Position numbers and translations under genes: made by a program
Assembly (NCBI GenBank): GCA_964215915.1
Contig: CAXPEB010000047.1
Span: forward strand, 29,835 to 93,834
Origin: Bacteroidia bacterium
GTDB taxonomy: Bacteria > Bacteroidota > Bacteroidia > UBA8524
Direction of reading: 5' to 3'
DNA length: 64,000 nucleotides
Part shown: in pieces, positions 6,064-30,100 of the stretch
Numbering within the stretch: the first letter of the stretch is position 1
Layout of the letters: each line of letters starts with the position of its first letter
Notes under the pieces: generated by a model
Database searches by the model: none
Seen by the model: only the letters and a program-made list of their open reading frames with translations
Told to the model about the DNA's origin: nothing

Positions 6064-7533
6064 TTATTTATAGAATTCATAAAAGCGGTTATTGAAAATC
6101 TCTTCCGGATCATATTTCCTTTTAAACATAAAAAACGAATCTGCCTGGGGGTAGGCCAGCCGCATCTTTTCCGACGAAACATGCAACCGGTAGGGAAGGT
6201 AGAAACTGCCCTCCAGGGATAGAGCCACATCAGTCAGAGCCATGGCAAGTTTCTTCATATCTTCCTCGGCCTCCGCGGTCTTTTTCTGATTGAATAAATA
6301 TACAAAGGCAAATACGGGCTCCCGGGCATAATTGAGATAGCTATCATGATCGGCCTGAACACCCCGGATGGTAATATTCAACAAGTCAATCGGGGAATCT
6401 TTCAGAATCGGTTTGACCGCATCCAGATAGGCATTGAAGTTTTTCAGGGGAATAAAATACTCCTGCAAGATATCGGTGCTGTTACTATCTCTGTTCTCAA
6501 TCATTTCAACCGGATCATTGAGCAATTCATTTCTTGAGAACACCTTGCCACTCGTAACCTTGTTCATGCCCCGTTCCAGATCCCAGCGTAACCGTTTCCC
6601 ATATTCGCTGTCCACGCTGCCGCGAAACACCAGTCGCGTCGATTCCAAACTCCTTTTTTCCCTGTCAGTCATTGGTGTCAGTTGTGAGGCACTGCGAACA
6701 AAATAGTTAAGGGTCGCTTCTTCCAAAAAGTGCTTTTCTGAAATTCGGAGCCGACCAAAGACCAGTTCCACATCGGGATTGTCTGCAATTAGTGCTGCAT
6801 AGGTCTCTACGTACTTAGAAGGAGAAAGTGAAGTACTTTTGTATTCCAGAGCAGCATTGTCTACTACCTGGAGTTCCACATCGAGTATGACGCCAAAAAG
6901 GCCATAGCCACCTAAAACCAACCGGAAGAGTTCGGTATTTTCCTCTCTGCTACAATGCACAATGCGGCCATCTGCCTGCATTAAGCTAAAACCCATAATG
7001 CTTGAGGCAAGTGGTGGCAGGTCCTTTTGCCAACCATGTCCGTTCACGCTAACTGAACCACCGACAGAAAATGAGCTGAAAGCCTGCATGATCGCAATTG
7101 ACTTTCCATACCCATCAAGAAAATACAAAGCATCTTCCCACAGAGCCCCGGAACCGATGACCAAGATATTCTTTGAAGTATCCAGATGCATTTCCTTGTA
7201 TGGAAGCATGTCCACTACGATCCCTCCCGGGTATACGGTATGACCGCCCATACTGTGCCTTGCCCCTGAAAGGGATACCTTCAAGCCCTTTTCCCGGGCA
7301 TAGTGCAAAATCGATCTAAGTTGAAAAATCAGTGCCTCCTTTCCCTGAGCGGCAGGGATCAAGGTATCGATAGGTGTCAGGTCTAAACCGCTGGCATCAC
7401 TTATATACCCTCTGGGCGAATCATGTCCCGGTCCTGTTTCTTTCCATTTGGTAAATAGCAAATGTCTGAATGGTATGGCAACGGCGATGAACATCAAAAA
7501 GATCAGGAGAAGCCAAAAATGTTTTCGTTTCAT
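6064..7533 (-). CDS. FAD-linked oxidoreductase (PCMH-type FAD-binding domain, lactone/alditol oxidase-like)
   Basis: 489 aa. It has an N-terminal TM/signal segment, an FAD-binding signature SGARHSMGGH and a C-terminal oxidase-like domain. Confidence 0.7.
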   Translation of the reverse strand: MKRKHFWLLLIFLMFIAVAIPFRHLLFTKWKETGPGHDSPRGYISDASGLDLTPIDTLIPAAQGKEALIFQLRSILHYAREKGLKVSLSGARHSMGGHTVYPGGIVVDMLPYKEMHLDTSKNILVIGSGALWEDALYFLDGYGKSIAIMQAFSSFSVGGSVSVNGHGWQKDLPPLASSIMGFSLMQADGRIVHCSREENTELFRLVLGGYGLFGVILDVELQVVDNAALEYKSTSLSPSKYVETYAALIADNPDVELVFGRLRISEKHFLEEATLNYFVRSASQLTPMTDREKRSLESTRLVFRGSVDSEYGKRLRWDLERGMNKVTSGKVFSRNELLNDPVEMIENRDSNSTDILQEYFIPLKNFNAYLDAVKPILKDSPIDLLNITIRGVQADHDSYLNYAREPVFAFVYLFNQKKTAEAEEDMKKLAMALTDVALSLEGSFYLPYRLHVSSEKMRLAYPQADSFFMFKRKYDPEEIFNNRFYEFYK

Positions 7534-7670
7534 ACAGAACTAATGGCAAGAAAACACAATAATTAGCAAAGCTACCCCTACGGATAAAAGAATACTCCTT
7601 TGCATGATCAACCAGTGAACGATTCAATGCCTATACCCGAAAACCAGACGATCCCCAAACACCACCCGCC

Positions 7671-8435
7671 TCAATTCCAGATTCCGTTGGCTTCCGTTAA
7701 AATGACCGGAACATCGTCCGTTACCAGGATGGTATGCTCGTGCTGCGTAACGTAGCCTCCCCTGTTTCCCACCAGGGTCCAGCCGTCAGGCTGTTCCACG
7801 GCTATCGTCGAGTTTGTGGAGATGAAGGTTTCAATCGCAACAGTAGTATTCTTCCTAAACCGCTCCCTGTTGGTTCTGACTCCGTAGTTCAGGATATTCT
7901 CAGGTCCTTCATGCAGGCTTCTGCCCACTCCATGACCTGCCAGGTTCTTAATCACCCGGAATCCGGATTTTTTCGCCTCACTCTCTATCAACTGGCCGAT
8001 CTCCGAAATCCTGACTCCTCCTTTTATCCGGTGAATCGCCTTGTGCAGAATTTGCCTAGATGCTTCAACCAGCGGCTGATGATTGTGAATGTCTTTGCCC
8101 AGGACAAAAGAACCTCCGTTGTCCGCCCAAAAACCGTCCAACTCGGCAGAAACATCAATATTCACCAGATCGCCTTCTTTCAATATTTTTTTCACGGAGG
8201 GAATTCCATGAGCCGCCTCCTCATTCACACTTATACACGAATAACCCGGGAATCCATAAGTCATATATGGCGCTGACCGCGCTCCATACTTTTTCAGAAT
8301 ACTTCCTCCGTACTCATCCAGCTCCTTGGTGGACATCCCTACCTCCGCATATTCTCTCATCAGCCGAAGCGTCATGCCCACTACTTCGCTGATCCTTTTC
8401 ATCCCGATTAGCTCGGATTCATTTGTTATTGACAT
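7671..8435 (-). CDS. map: Methionine aminopeptidase type I
   Basis: ORF 7671..8519. The likely start is the internal Met at 8435 (MSITNESELIGMKRISEVVG), giving ~255 aa. M24 signatures are present: metal ligands in the order D..D..H..E..E, and GHGVGRSLHEGP. Confidence 0.8.
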   Translation of the reverse strand: MSITNESELIGMKRISEVVGMTLRLMREYAEVGMSTKELDEYGGSILKKYGARSAPYMTYGFPGYSCISVNEEAAHGIPSVKKILKEGDLVNIDVSAELDGFWADNGGSFVLGKDIHNHQPLVEASRQILHKAIHRIKGGVRISEIGQLIESEAKKSGFRVIKNLAGHGVGRSLHEGPENILNYGVRTNRERFRKNTTVAIETFISTNSTIAVEQPDGWTLVGNRGGYVTQHEHTILVTDDVPVILTEANGIWN

Positions 8436-19428: not shown

Positions 19429-19995
19429 TCAGCGGAGTTCTTTTATCTTTTCTTTTGTGGTCCAGACCAAACGGCCACATTCCGTCACGATTATTTCCGA
19501 ATCCGTTTCCGCAAAAGACTCGGCAAAGTCCTGCCTGAATTTTACCCATTTTTCATCAACCTGTTCGCAGGCGATCCGCGCCAGGTAAATGGTCCTGCCG
19601 GTTAGCACCCAAATGGACGGAGTTACTTTGATACCAGCAGCCTTCTGCCTTTGGACCTTAGCACAATCGTTCGGAAAACACTTCAAAAGTGAGTCGACTG
19701 CCTGATCGCCTGTTTCTTTTGACGGAAAGTCGAATTGCCACATCTGAATTTTGGCATAAACGCTCCGGTTGTAGCTGTTTTGGTTCGAGTGAGGGGCTTT
19801 GGCCCTGATCGCCACTTCTCGCTTTTTACTATGGAGTTGCAGCTTGTCTATAGAATGGACAAAGTAGTCCGCCTCAGTGGAAACGATTATTTCAAAGCCC
19901 TCTTGCCTGCGTGCAAAATCTTCGACGGTTTTATCCTGCGGGTATTGAATAGCAGTCAGCAGGCTGAAAGTCACAATGGTCAGCAAAACGTTCAT
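19429..19995 (-). CDS. Hypothetical secreted protein
   Basis: 188 aa with a signal peptide (MNVLLTIVTFSLLTA). No recognisable family. Confidence 0.5.
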   Translation of the reverse strand: MNVLLTIVTFSLLTAIQYPQDKTVEDFARRQEGFEIIVSTEADYFVHSIDKLQLHSKKREVAIRAKAPHSNQNSYNRSVYAKIQMWQFDFPSKETGDQAVDSLLKCFPNDCAKVQRQKAAGIKVTPSIWVLTGRTIYLARIACEQVDEKWVKFRQDFAESFAETDSEIIVTECGRLVWTTKEKIKELR

Positions 19996-20081
19996 GAGTC
20001 CTCAGGTAGAAACGTCCGTAGAGCCTTTTAGGTATGCCCCTTCAATTTGAAAATTAACAAAAAGCCCGGAAACAACCTCCC

Positions 20082-20651
20082 TTATTCTCCGCCGGATACT
20101 TTCCCGTTTAGGGGTTCATAAATCAATTGTACCACTCCGGACCTGAACGTGTTCGTTCCGGTCAGCTTCAGTTCCAGCGGAGTTTTCACCTCTTCAAAGA
20201 GGGGTTTGCCACTTCCCAAAACGATGGGGTGCACGGAAATCCGGTACCGATCTATTAATCCGGACCGGATAAATGTTTGGATCAGTCCGGCCCCGCCATA
20301 TAACCAGATGTCCTTTCCCTCCATGGACTTCAATTTGGCGACCTCTCTTTCCACATCAGAACGGATAAAATGAACACGGTCGTCGTTGCCCGCTTGCCTG
20401 GTAAAAACATACTTCTTTTTATTATGGATGGCCTGCCAGAATTTGTGCTCTTCTTCCGCTGCATTTTCATCCGGATAAAAATTACCCCAGGCTTCGTAGC
20501 TTACTCTGCCGTAGAAGATGGCATCGATGGTTTCCAGGAATCCATAAAAATCCATATCCTCATCCAGGATACACCAATCTGTTTCGCCATTCGGGCCTTC
20601 GATGTAGCCGTCTAAGGACACGGCCAGGTCCAATATTATGTTTCTACTCAT
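20082..20651 (-). CDS. Dihydrofolate reductase family protein (RibD C-terminal domain type)
   Basis: 189 aa. The N-terminus MSRNIILDLAVSLDGYIEGPNGETDW and the GR-[VT]-[ST]-YE motif match the RibD_C/YwjB-like reductase pattern. Confidence 0.75.
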   Translation of the reverse strand: MSRNIILDLAVSLDGYIEGPNGETDWCILDEDMDFYGFLETIDAIFYGRVSYEAWGNFYPDENAAEEEHKFWQAIHNKKKYVFTRQAGNDDRVHFIRSDVEREVAKLKSMEGKDIWLYGGAGLIQTFIRSGLIDRYRISVHPIVLGSGKPLFEEVKTPLELKLTGTNTFRSGVVQLIYEPLNGKVSGGE

Positions 20652-20654
20652 TGC

Positions 20655-21077
20655 TTAATCCTCCACCGCTTCAATTCCCTGTTGTTTCAGATGCTCAAGG
20701 TGTTGCCTCATGGCAGTCAATTGTTCCGGAGAATGTCCTTCCCAATATTCAACTTCGCCCACAACCCGTATCGGATGGGCGGTACGATAGGATTTTGTTG
20801 GGTTCCCCGGGAATTTTTTGTCGGTCAGGTTGGGATCATCTTCATAGTGGCCTGTGGGTTCCACTTGGTAAATTCTTCCCGGACCTTCTCCAACCGCCAA
20901 TTCCGCTCCCCAGATTGCGGCATCCAGTGTAGCCGTAAGATATACATACCGCGCGTGTTTCCTTCTGCCATAATTGGAACGGAAACCCGGTTTGATCAGG
21001 TCCCCGGGTTGCATCTCTGCCTTTGTACCGTGATAGAAAGTCAGGGTTGTTTCTTTTTTCTTATCGATCTCTTTCAT
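20655..21077 (-). CDS. arr: Rifampin ADP-ribosyltransferase
   Basis: 140 aa, colinear with remembered Arr-2 across the whole length. The blocks FYHGTKA, AIWGAELA and YQVEPTGHYEDDPNLTDKKFPGNPTKSYRT all correspond, then the RVVGEVEYWEGH block and the IED-like C-terminal end. Confidence 0.9.
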   Translation of the reverse strand: MKEIDKKKETTLTFYHGTKAEMQPGDLIKPGFRSNYGRRKHARYVYLTATLDAAIWGAELAVGEGPGRIYQVEPTGHYEDDPNLTDKKFPGNPTKSYRTAHPIRVVGEVEYWEGHSPEQLTAMRQHLEHLKQQGIEAVED

Positions 21078-21535
21078 CCTTTATTACCGGTGAATTTGTC
21101 TTTCGTTTCATTCATCAGGGCTATGGCATTGATAAAGTAGCGCTCCATGATGGTCAGTTCATCGTCGGAAAAGGACCCCATTAATGTGTCGGTACCTGCC
21201 TGGAAATCTTTGTAATACGGTTCCAACAGGGCCATGATCTTTTCGGTATCCGGAACAATGTACACCCTGCGTCGGTCGCTTTTGTCCGGCTGTCTTTTTA
21301 CCAGTTTCTTTTTCTCAAACCGATCGATTAAGCCGGTAACCGCTCCGGTAGTCAATCCCGTTAAACCCGCTAGCTCCCCTGCCGTCAGCTTTCCTTTTTG
21401 AAGGAAAAAACCCAGGTATTTGTGATCCGTGCCTGAGAAACCACTTTTCCGGGCTATGGTTTCGTGTAGCTGTATGGATGTATAGGCATACCGTTGACTC
21501 AAACTCCTTAATGCCACGATTCTATCCTTACTCAT
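21074..21535 (-). CDS. MarR family transcriptional regulator
   Basis: 153 aa with a winged-HTH MarR pattern (LTAGELAGLTGLTTGAVTGLIDRFEKKKLVKRQPDKSDRRRVYIVPT). Its start codon overlaps the arr stop by 4 bp, suggesting an operon. Confidence 0.8.
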   Translation of the reverse strand: MSKDRIVALRSLSQRYAYTSIQLHETIARKSGFSGTDHKYLGFFLQKGKLTAGELAGLTGLTTGAVTGLIDRFEKKKLVKRQPDKSDRRRVYIVPDTEKIMALLEPYYKDFQAGTDTLMGSFSDDELTIMERYFINAIALMNETKDKFTGNKG

Positions 21536-24036: not shown

Positions 24037-24111
24037 ATGAGCCGAATAAAATGTGTAATCGGCTCATGTTTTGGGTATATTTGAGCCGAATAGCGTACCT
24101 AATCGGCTCAT
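24037..24111. promoter_or_regulatory. Two tandem copies of an imperfect palindrome ATGAGCCGAAT-N9-AATCGGCTCAT upstream of and overlapping the fic start
   Basis: Copy 1 spans 24037-24067 and copy 2 spans 24082-24111. The arms are TGAGCCGAAT / AATCGGCTCA. The second copy ends in the fic ATG. Confidence 0.5.
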
Positions 24112-25240
24112 GCGTTATAACTGGCAACAAACAGACTGGCCCCATTTTCAGTATGATTCGGCGATACTGGAAGGTCTACTCTTCAAGCTGACCGAACAAA
24201 TGGGTAAGCTCAGGGGTGTAATGAAAGCGCTGCCTGAAGATACCCGCATGGAAGCTATTATCGATACCATGGTATCCGAAGCGATTAAAACTTCAGAGAT
24301 CGAAGGAGAATACCTCAGTCGCGAGGATGTAAAATCTTCCATACGGAATAAACTGGGATTGAATAGTCCTCCTGAAAAAGTTTCTGATAAAAAGGCCCGG
24401 GGAGCCGGGGAACTGATGGTAGCCGTCCGGAATACCTTTTCCGAACCGCTGACAGAACAAATGCTTTTTGACTGGCACCGGCTTTTATTACAAAGTGATC
24501 CGGACATCCATACCGGAGCCTGGCGTACTCATGAAGAACCCATGCAGGTAGTGTCCGGTACTCTTGACAAACAACGCATCCATTTCGAAGCCCCTCCATC
24601 CGCAAAAGTTCCCGGAGAAATGAAACGGTTTATTGATTGGTTCAATGACTCGTCCTCCATTGAAGGTCCGGAAATCAAAAATGCTCCGATCAGAGCAGCT
24701 TTGGCTCACCTGTATTTTGAGAGTATACACCCCTTTGAAGATGGCAACGGACGCATCGGGCGGGCCATTGCCGAGAAAGCCCTTTTACAGGGTTATGGTC
24801 ATCCTTTACTACTAAGCTTATCGGCAACCATTGAGGCAAATAAGAAGGAGTATTACCATTCGCTGGAAAAAGCGCAACAAAGCAATGACGTGACTGCCTG
24901 GACGGAATATTTCCTTAATACCGTCTTGTCCGCAGAAAAGTCGGCAGAAGAGCAGATTGATTTCATCCTCGGTAAGGCTCGTTTTTTTGATCGTTACAAG
25001 GGAATACTCAATCAAAGACAACTCACCGTGTTAAGGCGTATGCTGCAGGAAGGCCCCCAAGGTTTCAAAGGAGGTATGTCAGCCAGGAAATACAGGGCCA
25101 TTGCCCAGATCTCAAAGGCAACGGCAACGAGAGACATGCAACACTTGGCGGAAATAGGGGCCTTTAGACCGGTTGGTGCCGGTCGCAGTGCCCGGTATGA
25201 AATCGTACTACCCGACTCCGGTTCCGGCGAAATTCTTTAG
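24110..25240 (+). CDS. fic: Fic family protein (AMPylase-type fido domain with DUF4172-like N-terminus)
   Basis: The Fic motif HPFEDGNGRIGR is present. The N-terminus MRYNWQQTDWPHFQYD is typical of DUF4172-Fic proteins. A C-terminal winged-helix-like tail is present. The ORF is listed from 24071, but the ATG at 24110 matches the family N-terminus. Confidence 0.85.
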   Translation: MRYNWQQTDWPHFQYDSAILEGLLFKLTEQMGKLRGVMKALPEDTRMEAIIDTMVSEAIKTSEIEGEYLSREDVKSSIRNKLGLNSPPEKVSDKKARGAGELMVAVRNTFSEPLTEQMLFDWHRLLLQSDPDIHTGAWRTHEEPMQVVSGTLDKQRIHFEAPPSAKVPGEMKRFIDWFNDSSSIEGPEIKNAPIRAALAHLYFESIHPFEDGNGRIGRAIAEKALLQGYGHPLLLSLSATIEANKKEYYHSLEKAQQSNDVTAWTEYFLNTVLSAEKSAEEQIDFILGKARFFDRYKGILNQRQLTVLRRMLQEGPQGFKGGMSARKYRAIAQISKATATRDMQHLAEIGAFRPVGAGRSARYEIVLPDSGSGEIL

Positions 25241-25256
25241 TCGGATACTACACCCC

Positions 25257-26285
25257 TTAAGCTTCTATCACTGTAATTCCGCTCAAATCCGCATGCTCCT
25301 TCTTCAGGAAAGCATACGTCAACTTATCCGCTTTGCAGTCAACAAACCGGATCTTCTTCATTTTCTTGTTGTGTTTGAAGAAGGTATTGATAAGCGTTGC
25401 ATTCCGGAAGATAACCCCGCTAAACCCACAGTTTTCAAAAAGGCACTCTTCTATGGTGCCTTCAAAAACGACGTCGGCAATATGCATGGAACGAAAAGAG
25501 GTACGATTCCATACGGCACCTGTTACCGTATTGTTTCCGAAACCACCGGATTTAAGTTCCACTCCCGTAAAATCAGAGTCAGAGAAATCGCAACCCTCAA
25601 CATAGCTCCGCAAAAATTCCGTTTCTATCAGCGAGCACCCATTAAAGGTGTTATTGGACAGGTTTGAACTCTGAATCTTGCTTCTGCTGATATCAGAACC
25701 GGAGAAGTCACAGCTCTCCACATTATTGCTTTTCAATAGAAGCCCCGACAAATCCGAGCCAACGAACAGGCACCGCTGCATATTGGAAGAAGCGAATTTT
25801 TCATGCAGGTTTTTCAACCCGGAGAAGTCCGTATCCACCAGGTTCTCACGCGACATGTCCCAACTACGCCTTTTCCCCTGTCCATTCCCCGACTCAGGCT
25901 GTGTACCGGATGAGACTTCCTCGTTCGCTTCCTCAGGCACCGTGTGTTGAAGGTCTTTGGAAAAGTAGTTGAGGTCGACACCCAGAATTTCTGCGAGTCG
26001 GTTGAAGGTAATGATATCCGGCATGGATTCTCCGCGTTCCCATTTCCCAACCGCCTGCGCACTGATAAACAAGCGCTCGGCAAGCTGGGCCTGTGAAATA
26101 CCGAATTTTTTACGGGCCTCCGTAATGCGTTCACCGATCCTTTTTGTACTTAGCATAGCTGTTTCTTTTTTGACCCTACAAAGGTATTGGCAGCTTTTCC
26201 CGGATTCCTGAAAACAAGCAACACTTCTGGTTGTAATTCCGCTACTTATAGTGGTAATCTGACAACTGTTGGTGGTATTTGACAA
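25257..26285 (-). CDS. XRE-family HTH domain fused to a pentapeptide-repeat domain
   Basis: 342 aa. The N-terminus has an HTH_XRE signature (RITEARKKFGISQAQLAERLFISAQAVGKWERGESMPDIITFNRLAEILGVDLNYF). A linker follows. About 160 aa then carry A(D/N)LxX-type pentapeptide repeats (CDFSGSDISRSKIQSSNLSNNTFNGCSLIETEF...). Confidence 0.75.
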   Translation of the reverse strand: MSNTTNSCQITTISSGITTRSVACFQESGKSCQYLCRVKKETAMLSTKRIGERITEARKKFGISQAQLAERLFISAQAVGKWERGESMPDIITFNRLAEILGVDLNYFSKDLQHTVPEEANEEVSSGTQPESGNGQGKRRSWDMSRENLVDTDFSGLKNLHEKFASSNMQRCLFVGSDLSGLLLKSNNVESCDFSGSDISRSKIQSSNLSNNTFNGCSLIETEFLRSYVEGCDFSDSDFTGVELKSGGFGNNTVTGAVWNRTSFRSMHIADVVFEGTIEECLFENCGFSGVIFRNATLINTFFKHNKKMKKIRFVDCKADKLTYAFLKKEHADLSGITVIEA

Positions 26286-26405
26286 AATTCAGAAAATCCT
26301 CTGTTATCCGCTCGTGATCAGGCACCGGCCGCATCCAGCAATTCTGCCAGCCAGTGAAGGTTCACAATATCGGGCTCATTACAAGGAGCCAGCTCCTTCT
26401 TATTT

Positions 26406-26571
26406 CCCGCAGAATACGCAGAGATGCTGTAGTGTTTGCTCAGAAACCGCTTCTTCCGAACTGATATCAGCGAGATCTGCGAAGCTCTCTTTTGCGCAGA
26501 ATACGCAGACCTACAATGGAAAGAAGCCACTTAGTTGACCGTGGCTCTTGACTCCGCGAGTTCTGCGGGAA
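26406..26571. repeat. Three copies of a ~16-19-bp motif built from CGCAGA half-sites, the third inverted
   Basis: Copy 1 (26406-26422) is CCCGCAGAATACGCAGA. Copy 2 (26494-26509) is GCGCAGAATACGCAGA. Copy 3 (26554-26571) reads TTCCCGCAGAACTCGCGGA on the minus strand. They lie 120-290 bp upstream of the HTH-pentapeptide gene start. Confidence 0.5.
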
Positions 26572-26634
26572 ACAAAATAAATCGATATACAAAAGTACCG
26601 AACAACTAGAACCCGGCACCCAAAACCGAGTACC

Positions 26635-26943
26635 TTATGAAAACTTGCAAGTGTCACAGAAATCAATGTGATGAGGTTGTCCCTCCGTATCTATAGATGT
26701 CACCGCTCCGGTGTCCACGATTATATCTTCACCGATATGCCTTTTATAGTTGGGGTCTGCAAGCATTTCCTTAGCATAGAAATGGCTTCTGCCTTCTGTG
26801 GTTCTGGACAACGCAGGGGGATTAATTCCGTATGGATATTCCACATCAAGTAGTTCGGGGAATAAAGCTCCTTTCTTAACCAGAGCGTCAAATTCCACCC
26901 AGAGTTCATTTTGCAACGTATACAGTTTATCCTGATAGCTCAT
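26635..26943 (-). CDS. Hypothetical small protein
   Basis: 102-aa ORF ending in CDTCKFS. No family recognised. Coding status uncertain. Confidence 0.4.
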   Translation of the reverse strand: MSYQDKLYTLQNELWVEFDALVKKGALFPELLDVEYPYGINPPALSRTTEGRSHFYAKEMLADPNYKRHIGEDIIVDTGAVTSIDTEGQPHHIDFCDTCKFS

Positions 26944-27193
26944 AAATTATCTAAAAGCAGTTTGCTTCGGAAGCGTGCCGATGCATCGTCGGAAATCCCC
27001 AAAACAAGTTACATAAGTATAGGTTGAGTTATCGGCTTAGCAGTTAATTCACCTCCTTTATCCATTCAGCTGCTCAAAGGCATAGAGGAAGGACAAAAAA
27101 AGCCGCCTAACCTTCCTCCTGGAGGAAAGTCAAGCAGCTTCTTGTTGGGTAATGTTTCGGTGAGGTTATTCCGGATGTATCCTCTTTCCGCTT

Positions 27194-30100
27194 TTATGGA
27201 GAAAGTACGATACGCCGGTTATGATAAAGCCCATTGCTGTGTACATGCACCAGGTAAACACCGGGACTCAGGTCGGATACTTTCACACGTACCTTTCTAT
27301 CACTGAGGGACTCCGTACGAATAGCCACGGCTTTGCCGGTCATGTCGGTCAGCTCCAAGGAGAAGTCACTTGCGAAAGGCTCGTCCATTTCCACCGTAAA
27401 GGTGTTTACTGCCGGATTCGGGTACATCCGAAAGCCATTCATTTCTCCGACTACCGATACGGATGTGGTACTGTCATCCGGTGCACGCTTCAGCTGGGGT
27501 CCGGGCCATCCATCAATAAAGGCAGGAACTCCGTTTGTCTCTTCATAGAAACAGGTGCTGGTAAAAGAAGGATGAACGGAACCCGACAACTGGCTCTGGG
27601 TCCAATGCGGAAAGGTAGAGACCCACAAGTCGCTGGAAATTCCGGGATCCCAATAGTTACCCGAGGCTTTTACGGCATAAGGTGTGGGAGCAACACCGGT
27701 ATAGAAGGAGCACATGCCCCCGCCACAGTTATCCGGCATTACACCGGTCATAAACAGGTTGGATGCATAGATCCCCGTATTCCGGAACACATTGTCGCCA
27801 TCCTCCAGGTAAGGCTGTGTTTCATAGAGGTTGATTGCCGTACCGTTATTGAAAAAGGCACAGTTACCTCCGTAATTCCCATTGGGGGCATAAGCCGTGC
27901 TCAGGTTCAGGCGGCCGGATCCATGGAAATCCAAACCTGTCAATTCATTGTAGGAAAAGAGGCAACAGGCCGCCGTAAGGTCAATGCTGTTTGCAGTCTG
28001 CTCGGATAAGATGCCGGTCTCGTTATTGGTAAAGCTTACTTCCTCCAGGTAGGTCTCCACCGGGGATGCATTGGAAATAATGATCCCGAAATCGTTGTTG
28101 GAGAAACCGGCCTGGCGAATTTCCGAATTCTGATTTTGCAGGGTGCTCCACCACCCGACGCTATTACCGGTAAAGGTGCAGTTGTAAAGTCCGAGCCCGC
28201 CATAATCGCTGGACAAGCCGATGTAGTTATTTTTAAAGGAGCAATAAGAGAGGGAAGGCTTCGACACAAAGGTGCTCATGTCCATATCGATGCCTTTGTC
28301 CAGATCTCTGAAAGAGCACTGGAAAATATTAGCCAGGTGGGGTTTGGGCAACCACAGCCCGGTATTCGTCGAGCGGCTTACCAGTCCGACAAAATAGGTA
28401 TACTGGAAGTCTGATGTCACAGATACCCTGAGCCTGGAACCGGATCCCACTGCTACCATACCGCCCACGATGTTGAATTCAGCCAGGTAGTCGGTAGCCG
28501 AAAGGGTATTATCGGGTGTACTGAGTGTTCCATTAATAACTTCCAGCACCTTATCCATAAGTAAGCCGGGAATATTGTTCCCGCTCAGGCTGATCTTTCC
28601 GTTAGTGCCCTGGGAGAAAATTCCGGCATTGGGGTCACTCATATCAAAACGGATGAACCCGCCGGTAAACCCGGGGCTCTTGGTAAAGGTGAAGGTAGCT
28701 CCGTTCATGATCTGCAACTCTCCGTGTATCTCCAGCACGGCATTCTCGCCATCCAGGTAGATGCTTGCTCCCGGATGGAAAACCAACCTGGAACTGGCAT
28801 CTATAACCACCTTGCTGTTGTCAGCAATGCGCAGCACGCCTCCATTGCGGATCTCCAGTTTCGCATTGTCGGTGATCAGCAGTTCTCCGGTATTCTGGCT
28901 GGAATTATCTCCTACCTGTAGCAGGCCATCCGACTGTATTTCCACCCCAATGACCGGATAACAGGTAGAGCCACTGGTATAAACTTCGAAATGCGATCCC
29001 GGAACGGGTGCCGGATTATTTCCGTTGGGCGTATTTCCCAGGCTCATGTTGGCATTGATCCCCAGCACTCCTCCTGTCCGGATTTTTATGAAATTGATCC
29101 TTTTCGGAGTACCCTGCCCCATGTTATAGGTATGATTGATTAACTCCACGGAGCCACTGGTATAGGTGAGCAAAGCATCCGGGAGGTCTGCAAAGGATTC
29201 TTTAAAAAACACCTGGTTCAGCGGGGTCCAGTCGGTATGGTAGGTATTGACCGGCACGATATTCCCCGAGCCGTCGTCTTCTTCCTGCCACTGGAAATCA
29301 TCCATATAACTTTCACCGTTCGACCAGGTCTTGGTCAGGTCATCCCAGTTGGAAAGGATCGGGTAGTTCAGGTTGTTTCGGTAGGGAGATTTCAGCGCAC
29401 AGGAACTCACACTTGGAATAAAGCAGATAGCATCCTGGTGGAGCGTAACATTGACAGAAACAAAGGGAAGGCTTGGGATATAGTCGTTCGGGTCCGGGAA
29501 GACAATATCACCCCCGGGAGCGTTATCCAGGGAGGCGGTTCCGTTCACGCGGTTTCGCTTGTAACTTAAAATGGCCGTTCCAACCCCGGCTGCTCCCGGA
29601 ACTCCCACGAAGGAAAAATTCACTACCGTTCCCTGGTAGATAAGCCGGGTACCCTGTGATGGATCCGGAACGGTATTCAATTCAAGGTTGGAGTACAACC
29701 CGGCAAATAAAATGGCATTGGCTCCCGGAATAAACAGATAGTCGCCCACAAAACCCCAGGCCTCGATATCGGCCAAATTAGAATTAGGGGCATAGGGTTG
29801 TCCGGTTCCCCCGTCACAGGCCCCGTTGCTCAGCGCATAATTCCGGATTTGTATCCCCCTGGAACTGACTTGCGACGGAAATTCTCCCATAGCACTCAAC
29901 TCATTATTCAGGGTAATCCGCTCTGCCGACTCTCCAATACCCGAACCCGACTGCAACGAAGAAAGTATCAATTGCTGCGTAGCCGGCGCCAAAGCAGCAT
30001 CTTCCACCACCCCGATCTTTGAGCTGAGATTCTTCATTGGAATATTCTGAATGATAACATAGGGCCCTACATAGAGGTAGAAATACACATTGATATTGGC

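Follow-up and report, generated by a model that had tools for sequence, protein, structure and literature searches.

The HTH-PRP gene and its promoter

The DNA analyzed here, designated the window, is a stretch of 64,000 nucleotides (nt) of contig CAXPEB010000047.1 (assembly GCA_964215915.1), originating from a Bacteroidia bacterium. Its minus strand carries a gene encoding an XRE-type helix-turn-helix (HTH) domain fused to a pentapeptide-repeat protein (PRP) domain. The gene, designated HTH-PRP, belongs to a large family and is preceded by a conserved array of three predicted operator boxes, through which it is very likely autoregulated. The features of the gene and of its promoter, some of which were located with a position weight matrix (PWM) or by the predicted local distance difference test (pLDDT), are the following.

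25257..26156, minus strand: HTH-PRP coding sequence (299 aa), from the ATG at 26156 to the stop codon at 25257-25259 (open reading frame list, public gene call, homologue alignment).
25959..26156, minus strand: XRE/Cro-C1-type HTH, residues 1-66 (Pfam HTH_3, AlphaFold2, Foldseek, conservation).
25866..25958, minus strand: variable disordered linker, residues 67-97 (AlphaFold2 pLDDT, homologue alignment).
25260..25865, minus strand: pentapeptide-repeat right-handed quadrilateral beta-helix, residues 98-299, ~10 coils (Pfam, AlphaFold2, Foldseek).
26179..26186, minus strand: -7 promoter box of the Bacteroidetes type TACCTTTG, 30 nt upstream of the ATG (sequence reading, comparison with homologous promoters).
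26220..26238, minus strand: predicted operator box 3 AATTACAACCAGAAGTGTT, proximal, just upstream of the degenerate -33 region (PWM scan).
26241..26259, minus strand: predicted operator box 2 GATTACCACTATAAGTAGC, 21 bp from box 3 (PWM scan).
26262..26280, minus strand: predicted operator box 1 AAATACCACCAACAGTTGT, distal, the most palindromic, 21 bp from box 2 (PWM scan).

An uninterrupted open reading frame (ORF) spans positions 25257..26285 of the minus strand. Its longest form, initiated at a TTG codon, would encode 342 residues, and this was the extent attributed to the gene in an earlier reading made from the sequence alone (the sequence-only reading). Three observations indicate that the true start is the ATG at position 26156. 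The public gene call made on an identical contig also encodes 299 residues, the 30 aligned homologues all start at an equivalent MLxTK sequence, and the conserved -7 box, together with the three operator boxes, lies within the 43 codons that are specific to the TTG form. The TTG start was rejected, the 43 additional N-terminal residues being a spurious translation of promoter and operator DNA. The identical protein is present on an independent Logan contig.

Domain organization and predicted structure

The sequence-only reading had proposed the fusion of an XRE HTH to pentapeptide repeats and had suggested to examine it by a search with hidden Markov models (HMMs), a structure prediction and an architecture search. 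Comparison of the 299-residue form with Pfam detected HTH_3 at residues 13-65 (E 1.1e-14, 54.7 bits for a cut-off of 23), Pentapeptide_4 (E 2.4e-16, 60 bits for a cut-off of 38), and Pentapeptide (E 4.9e-10, 39.2 bits for a cut-off of 20.2), LD_SV2 being also among the matches of the beta-helix region. Both domains, including the repeat region, scored above the curated cut-offs, and the protein belongs to both the PRP superfamily (PF13599/PF00805) and the XRE HTH family (PF01381).

AlphaFold2, run with a 30-sequence alignment, generated a model with a mean pLDDT of 84. The model contains a five-helix HTH (residues 1-66), a disordered linker (residues 69-97, pLDDT below 50), and a regular beta-helix of approximately ten coils (residues 100-299, pLDDT mostly above 90). 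This beta-helix bears a conserved N-cap (SWDMS...DFSGL) as well as a short C-terminal helix (residues 278-286). Its coils look regular, and obvious extruded loops of the Qnr type, in which loops A and B are functional, are not evident. In a Foldseek search of the PDB, the beta-helix matched QnrB1, MfpA, AlbG, AhQnr, EfsQnr, and HetL with a probability of 1.0, a value obtained for about 45 PRP structures. The best matches of the HTH were C.BclI and C.AhdI, with template-modeling (TM) scores on target of 0.75-0.88. No solved structure holding the HTH and PRP domains together was found in the structure search. The prediction and the Foldseek matches agree with Pfam on the proposed fusion. The repeat domain had been described as about 160 residues of A(D/N)LxX repeats; it proved to comprise about 200 residues in about ten coils, with a motif closer to [CS][DN][FL]Sx. 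PRPs that mimic DNA have a mostly electronegative surface similar to B-DNA. The net charge, the electrostatic property that was computed here, is -4 for the PRP domain of the window protein and ranges from -1 to -10 across the family.

Family size and conservation

A word-indexed search returned 4083 clusters at E <1e-5, and the best 120 were all full length, 48-75% identical to the window protein, and contained both domains. These 120 are named in databases merely as 'pentapeptide repeat-containing protein', 'transcriptional regulator', or 'YjbI'. An exhaustive HMMER search against representatives of clusters at 50% identity gave 89 matches below 1e-30, and approximately 60 of these shared the architecture over their full length, at identities as low as ~30%. 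In a scan of one genome per species, relatives were found in at least 583 species, mostly Bacteroidota. The taxa include Chitinophagales, Sphingobacteriales, Flavobacteriales, Bacteroidales, and Ignavibacteria, in addition to a few oddly labelled records. In these sequence comparisons, the fusion is effectively obligate in this subfamily, and common. The combination of domains, called odd in the sequence-only reading, is not so in the sense of rare, since the architecture is widespread in a large conserved family. The gene of the window is an ordinary member of this uncharacterised family, and the new elements are the revised gene model, the triple operator conserved across the family, and the link to an exporter. 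No publication on an HTH-PRP fusion was found by full-text search.

Mean conservation is highest in the HTH (0.78), still good in the PRP domain (0.64), and poor in the linker (0.37), whose length varies from 26 to 45 residues among homologues. The full length of the homologues ranges from 295 to 379 residues, and the insertions are of exactly 20, 40, or 60 residues, corresponding to one to three whole coils (alignment A1, columns ~185-320). Analysis of the conservation of the beta-helix face by face did not reveal any clearly preferred face. A tblastn search of PLSDB did not detect any match to HTH-PRP on plasmids.

The one apparent stand-alone PRP, P0203, was rejected as an indication that the PRP domain works by itself, since it is a mis-called fragment, an HTH being encoded in frame directly upstream of its called start. 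At positions 1-1053 of locus L202, from an organism with a GC content of 60%, a protein called as a stand-alone PRP of 201 residues is the C-terminal part of an HTH-PRP. The linker of the latter protein is unusually long (~110 residues), with a duplicated ...DEIPPFQGG... segment, and an ABC/ABC-2 pair follows the gene. Near-typical family members displaying 61-67% identity are present in three records labelled as other than Bacteroidota, namely CP034120.1 (Glaciecola amylolytica, L005) and two metagenome-assembled genomes (Cloacimonadota, L055, and Oscillospiraceae, L079). Two of the three carry the ABC pair. These records reflect either horizontal transfer of a cassette or mislabelling or contamination.

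A conserved array of predicted operators

The 110 nt located upstream of the window gene and of 78 homologues were aligned, and boxes were scored with the PWM. Two or three boxes were detected in 74 of the 78 homologous promoters, in a constant order comprising a distal palindrome, ACAAC-N5-GTTGT, followed by ACAACTATAAGTAGC and, last, TTACAACTAtAAGT. The spacing between boxes was exactly 21 bp in 104 of 113 cases. This phasing, corresponding to two helical turns, places all boxes on one face of the DNA. The consensus of the Bacteroidetes -7 element is TAnnTTTG. In the homologous promoters, this element precedes the ATG by a variable distance (20-65 nt), and the distance from the core A of box 3 to the T of the -7 box is 47-48 nt in 71 of 74 promoters. 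The array therefore ends a few bases upstream of the -33 element.

The boxes are concentrated in the family promoters, with 191 boxes in the 78 promoters versus 130 in the remaining 836 kb of flanking DNA, both strands included. For paired boxes, the counts were 140 and 2, respectively, the latter two being weak. In a scan of metagenome contigs, the pattern of three boxes was matched 121 times. An HTH-PRP gene was found 76-110 nt downstream from 78 of these matches, and 11 were too close to a contig end to be judged. Among the 32 matches that were not followed by an HTH-PRP gene, 3 displayed authentic promoter features and 29 were chance matches, located mostly in coding repeats. Thus, 78 of the 81 authentic-looking matches precede an HTH-PRP gene. 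The array is also retained in two Bacteroidota-like distant relatives. In a relative with a GC content of 58%, which lacks a Bacteroidetes promoter, two ACAAC boxes persist at an interval of 20 nt, among them the palindrome ACAACCATTGGTTGC.

The association of the HTH with the predicted array as a conserved, dedicated pair provides strong comparative evidence for autoregulation, which we consider to be very likely. The sequence-only reading had raised autoregulation as a hint provided by CGCAGA direct repeats located upstream of the gene. Autoregulation is retained, and the site is different, since it would involve the three ACAAC-N5-GTTGT boxes phased by 21 bp at positions 26220-26280. With the array placed upstream of the -33 element, the protein could activate its promoter, repress it through cooperative occlusion, or switch between the two in the manner of a controller protein. 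The length of the beta-helical rod is not a ruler for operator geometry, because the number of coils varies while the 21-bp spacing is constant.

The three arrays without an HTH-PRP gene are located in L164 (~700-760, minus orientation), L156 (5166-5201), and L176 (1351-1387). The array of L164 lies directly before a gene encoding an S-adenosylmethionine (SAM)-dependent methyltransferase of the same family as that encoded downstream from HTH-PRP in L008 and L023. These orphan arrays suggest that the regulator has been deleted or that it acts in trans. In addition, a semi-conserved inverted repeat, GATTCnGGAAATGAATC, is present between the -33 and -7 elements in many loci (e.g. L009, L018, and L029), and its version in the window, TTTTCAGGAATCCGGGAAAAGC, is poorly preserved. 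Another factor could use this repeat as a second regulatory site.

The CGCAGA repeat region

The CGCAGA repeats reported by the sequence-only reading are present. The sequence GCGCAGAATACGCAGA occurs at positions 26407-26422 and 26494-26509, with inverted partners at 26467-26481 and 26553-26567. The repeats lie 250-350 bp upstream of the HTH-PRP start and are absent from the rest of the window and from 80 homologous loci. On these grounds, they were rejected as an operator. The region follows a terminator-like hairpin located after an upstream ORF of 102 aa and does not itself contain any usable ORF. Rfam gave nothing significant in 25000-27300, and Tandem Repeats Finder gave nothing in 26100-26800. 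Positions 26400-26575 comprise two units of ~87 bp, each consisting of GCAGAATACGCAGA and its inverted partner (TCTGCG...), an arrangement that would give a long-range stem with inner hairpins. The region is flanked by additional hairpins at 26383-26398 and 26593-26621. Predicted RNA folding was unusually strong, with -84.2 kcal/mol (z -5.25) for the minus strand and -68.5 kcal/mol (z -4.1) for the plus strand. By sequence comparison, the region appears to be a separate local element that is not the operator. It could be a small RNA, a structure of a 3' untranslated region, or a remnant of a mobile element.

Genes located downstream from HTH-PRP

In 20 of 80 homologous loci, HTH-PRP is immediately followed, on the same strand, by genes encoding an ATP-binding cassette (ABC) ATPase and an ABC-2 permease, with a gap of -20 to +72 nt that is often -1. 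The pair was typed as DrrA-like (TIGR01188, 288.6 bits) and DrrB-like/ABC2_membrane. The same pair follows HTH-PRP in two of five distant relatives, including an organism with a GC content of 60%, and it is the only recurrent immediate partner of the gene. By eye, the sequences of the ABC pair compared from four orders are about 80% identical. This high similarity, combined with very variable flanks, suggests that HTH-PRP and the ABC pair form a mobile cassette.

Genes found in 2-9 loci encode AraC, beta-lactamase family, RibD_C, DUF1801, methyltransferase, AHSA1/SRPBCC, PhnB-like, and glyoxalase/bleomycin-resistance proteins, which are typical accessory functions of the xenobiotic type. No toxin biosynthesis gene was recurrent in the HTH-PRP neighborhoods, no MfpB-type GTPase was found among the conserved or immediate neighbors in 81 loci, and no restriction-modification (R-M) gene was found in the window or among the conserved neighbors.

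Comparison with known systems

The beta-helix of HTH-PRP shares its right-handed quadrilateral fold with AlbG, Qnr, and MfpA and also resembles the latter two proteins in length and in the presence of a C-terminal helix. Sequence models did not place HTH-PRP in any family of gyrase-protecting PRPs, and the resemblance is one of fold. Its scores are far below the cut-offs of the Qnr model (34.1 bits versus 240, NCBIfam NF033086) and of the MfpA model (25.2 bits versus 360, NCBIfam NF000349), and HTH-PRP is not a member of either family. In contrast to Qnr, the coils of the model are regular, without evident Qnr-type loops. In contrast to MfpA, no mfpB-like GTPase gene is found in the neighborhood. 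The net charge is near neutral, unlike that of Qnr and MfpA, which have no counterpart to the N-terminal DNA-binding domain.

McbEFG is the immunity module for microcin B17, which associates the PRP McbG with the ABC-2 exporter McbE/McbF. The loci containing the ABC pair (20 of 80, and two of the five distant relatives) resemble this module, as well as AlbG with the albicidin pump, since a PRP of ~200 residues appears to be co-transcribed with an ABC ATPase and an ABC-2 permease. HTH-PRP differs from McbEFG by the presence of its own N-terminal HTH and of a dedicated predicted operator array, by the lack of toxin biosynthesis genes in its neighborhoods, and by the absence of the exporter from most loci, including the window, in which a convergent fic gene is located downstream.

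The closest structural matches of the HTH, C.AhdI and C.BclI, are controller proteins of R-M systems. HTH-PRP has in common with these controllers, and with lambdoid repressors, several phased palindromic operators, predicted in the case of HTH-PRP, located immediately upstream of its own promoter, an organization that implies cooperative autoregulation. It differs from the controllers by the presence of three boxes at 21-bp phasing rather than a C-box with two operators, by the attachment of a 200-residue beta-helix to the HTH, by its -33/-7 promoter of the Bacteroidetes type, and by the absence of R-M genes nearby.

A fourth comparison is provided by HetL, a separate cyanobacterial PRP that modulates the transcription factor HetR and has no DNA-binding domain. 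HetL is structurally similar to the beta-helix of HTH-PRP and offers a case of a PRP participating in transcriptional control through protein-protein contacts. The similarity detected by HMM is weak (29 bits versus a cut-off of 260), and the two proteins differ by the absence of a DNA-binding domain in HetL, by the phylum, and by the process involved.

Proposed function of the PRP domain

It is highly probable, in our estimation, that the family associates a dedicated autoregulatory HTH with a functional PRP domain. We also consider it probable, with less assurance, that HTH-PRP is an autoregulated XRE-family factor in which the beta-helix is the C-terminal working domain, acting as an effector or as a sensor. 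HTH dimers would bind the three boxes in a cooperative manner and thereby determine how much of the protein, and of the products of the co-transcribed genes, is made. The location of the boxes upstream of the -33 element would make possible a concentration-dependent switch from activation to repression, of the type known for R-M controllers. The DrrA/DrrB-like ABC-2 exporter would be co-transcribed in about a quarter of the species, generating a PRP-plus-exporter module similar to McbEFG. Since the regulator appears to control mostly itself and the fusion appears obligate, the PRP domain would most likely be an effector or sensor, present at a controlled dose, that binds a protein partner or a toxic compound. 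Through feedback, the HTH would hold this dose in check and link it to export.

Gyrase is shielded against particular poisons by PRPs that adopt this fold (PMC7897471). This protection and the parallel with McbEFG designate type II topoisomerases, or their poisoned complexes, as the leading candidates for the partner of the PRP domain. Action of the domain on a topoisomerase as a DNA mimic, to which the sequence-only reading had alluded, is a proposal that we make tentatively. Its best support, which is indirect, is the recurrent operon encoding the DrrAB-like exporter, of which the window has no copy.

Several observations weigh against this interpretation or against the wider model of an autoregulated effector. 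The low scores obtained with the Qnr and MfpA models argue against kinship with the PRPs that protect gyrase, and the PRP domain is weakly acidic or near neutral by net charge. The lack of an MfpB-like neighbor and of toxin biosynthesis genes also speaks against a topoisomerase as the partner. The link between the PRP domain and gyrase is drawn from the predicted fold and from analogy. The genes located downstream from HTH-PRP are heterogeneous, being unrelated in three quarters of the loci. In the window, HTH-PRP stands alone, with neither an exporter nor another operator, and the local output would be the protein itself only. Finally, the near-invariance of the HTH and of the operator across classes could reflect a larger regulon of single sites.

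The proposal could be extended to a self-titrating sensor, in which a poisoned or stalled gyrase or topoisomerase IV (or a toxin) would capture the beta-helix and pull the HTH off the three operators. We regard this extension as improbable. It would imply that damage to the enzyme directly raises the amount of the protective PRP and, where present, of the DrrAB-like exporter. In a variant of this mechanism, the beta-helix may be an intramolecular DNA mimic masking its own HTH until a partner binds.

To our knowledge, the native roles of PRPs are poorly understood beyond a few cases of drug resistance (Qnr, MfpA, McbG, and AlbG). The PRP fold and the XRE HTH are already known kinds of domains, and their combination in a large, conserved family with a hard-wired DNA-binding domain offers a clean, testable system and a tractable handle on native PRP function. 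A precisely predictable operator and a recurrent DrrAB-like exporter make the family approachable with simple assays. If the PRP domain acted on gyrase, the family would exemplify a novel mode of regulation of intrinsic resistance among environmental Bacteroidota. If the domain were merely a scaffold, HTH-PRP would still be of use as a novel class of XRE regulators whose operator is defined.

Alternative explanations

The main alternative is a classical drug-responsive repressor. The PRP domain would be a scaffold for dimerization, cooperativity, or ligand sensing, without action on topoisomerases, and binding of a small molecule or a peptide would free the HTH from the operators, inducing the exporter. 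It is commonplace for XRE HTH domains to be followed by an unrelated oligomerization or sensor domain, and an operon encoding a DrrAB-like exporter has the usual layout of a regulator and its pump. A PRP domain that is near neutral rather than strongly acidic, and that fails the Qnr and MfpA models, would fit such a scaffold, which would also tolerate variation by whole coils of 20 residues at a constant operator spacing of 21 bp. However, the conservation of the PRP domain and the specificity of its N-cap and C-terminus exceed the needs of a plain spacer, and most loci do not contain any pump to be regulated. We also know of no PRP that binds small-molecule inducers. We consider this explanation to be rather unlikely.

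A global regulator is a less favorable alternative. The triple array would be the strongest, autoregulatory site of a factor controlling many genes through single ACAAC-N5-GTTGT sites. Numerous target sites would explain why the HTH and the half-sites are nearly invariant across classes, even in the high-GC relative, and the orphan arrays found before the SAM-dependent methyltransferase gene (L164) and before another gene (L156) point in the same direction. However, a mobile, self-contained cassette would equally explain this invariance, in view of the variable neighborhoods and of the ~80% identity of the ABC pair. In the 64-kb window, box 1 is the only palindrome with at most one mismatch located near a gene start, and the total of such palindromes (3) was taken as equal to the chance expectation (1.7). 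Similarly, the flanks of the 80 loci contain no paired boxes beyond the two weak ones. Control of a large regulon by HTH-PRP is accordingly, on these counts, quite improbable.

The third alternative involves the neighboring gene.

24071..25240, plus strand: Fic gene (DUF4172 and Fic domains; ORF list, Pfam).

In this scheme, HTH-PRP would be the XRE-type antitoxin, or the regulator, of a Fic AMP-transferase, forming a toxin-antitoxin or defense pair. FicT toxins target gyrase and topoisomerase IV, and some Fic relatives modify GyrB and ParE. The Fic protein of the window has an intact HPFEDGNGR motif and a C-terminal match resembling a winged HTH, and the HTH of HTH-PRP is weakly similar to antitoxin families (NCBIfam). 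The sequence-only reading had pointed out that HTH-PRP sits directly next to fic. The genes are indeed adjacent, but they are convergent, with 16 bp between the stop codons, and do not form a co-directional operon. Furthermore, Fic is a neighbor of HTH-PRP in only two of the 81 loci, the window and L016, and was rejected as a functional partner at the level of the family. By sequence reading, the Fic protein also has its own inhibitory helix, with the motif T-S-E-I-E-G (T-x-x-x-E-G). A Fic-based pair is nearly refuted by this lack of conservation, and we give it very little credence. In L016, the Fic protein (6990-8108) is 37% identical to that of the window and is encoded by the immediate downstream neighbor of HTH-PRP. 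Two loci of 81 are slightly above the chance expectation and too few for a claimed link.

Joining of two genes by a missed stop codon, which the sequence-only reading had envisaged, or by a frameshift has practically no probability and is refuted by the continuous reading frame, by the identical protein on the independent Logan contig, and by hundreds of full-length homologues with the same architecture, including the best 120.

Other genes of the window

A cluster located 4 kb from HTH-PRP on the minus strand (19429-21535) encodes a MarR regulator, Arr-ms (rifampin ADP-ribosyltransferase family), and two RibD_C (dihydrofolate-reductase-like) proteins, with overlapping starts and stops. This cluster looks like an accessory operon of the resistance type.

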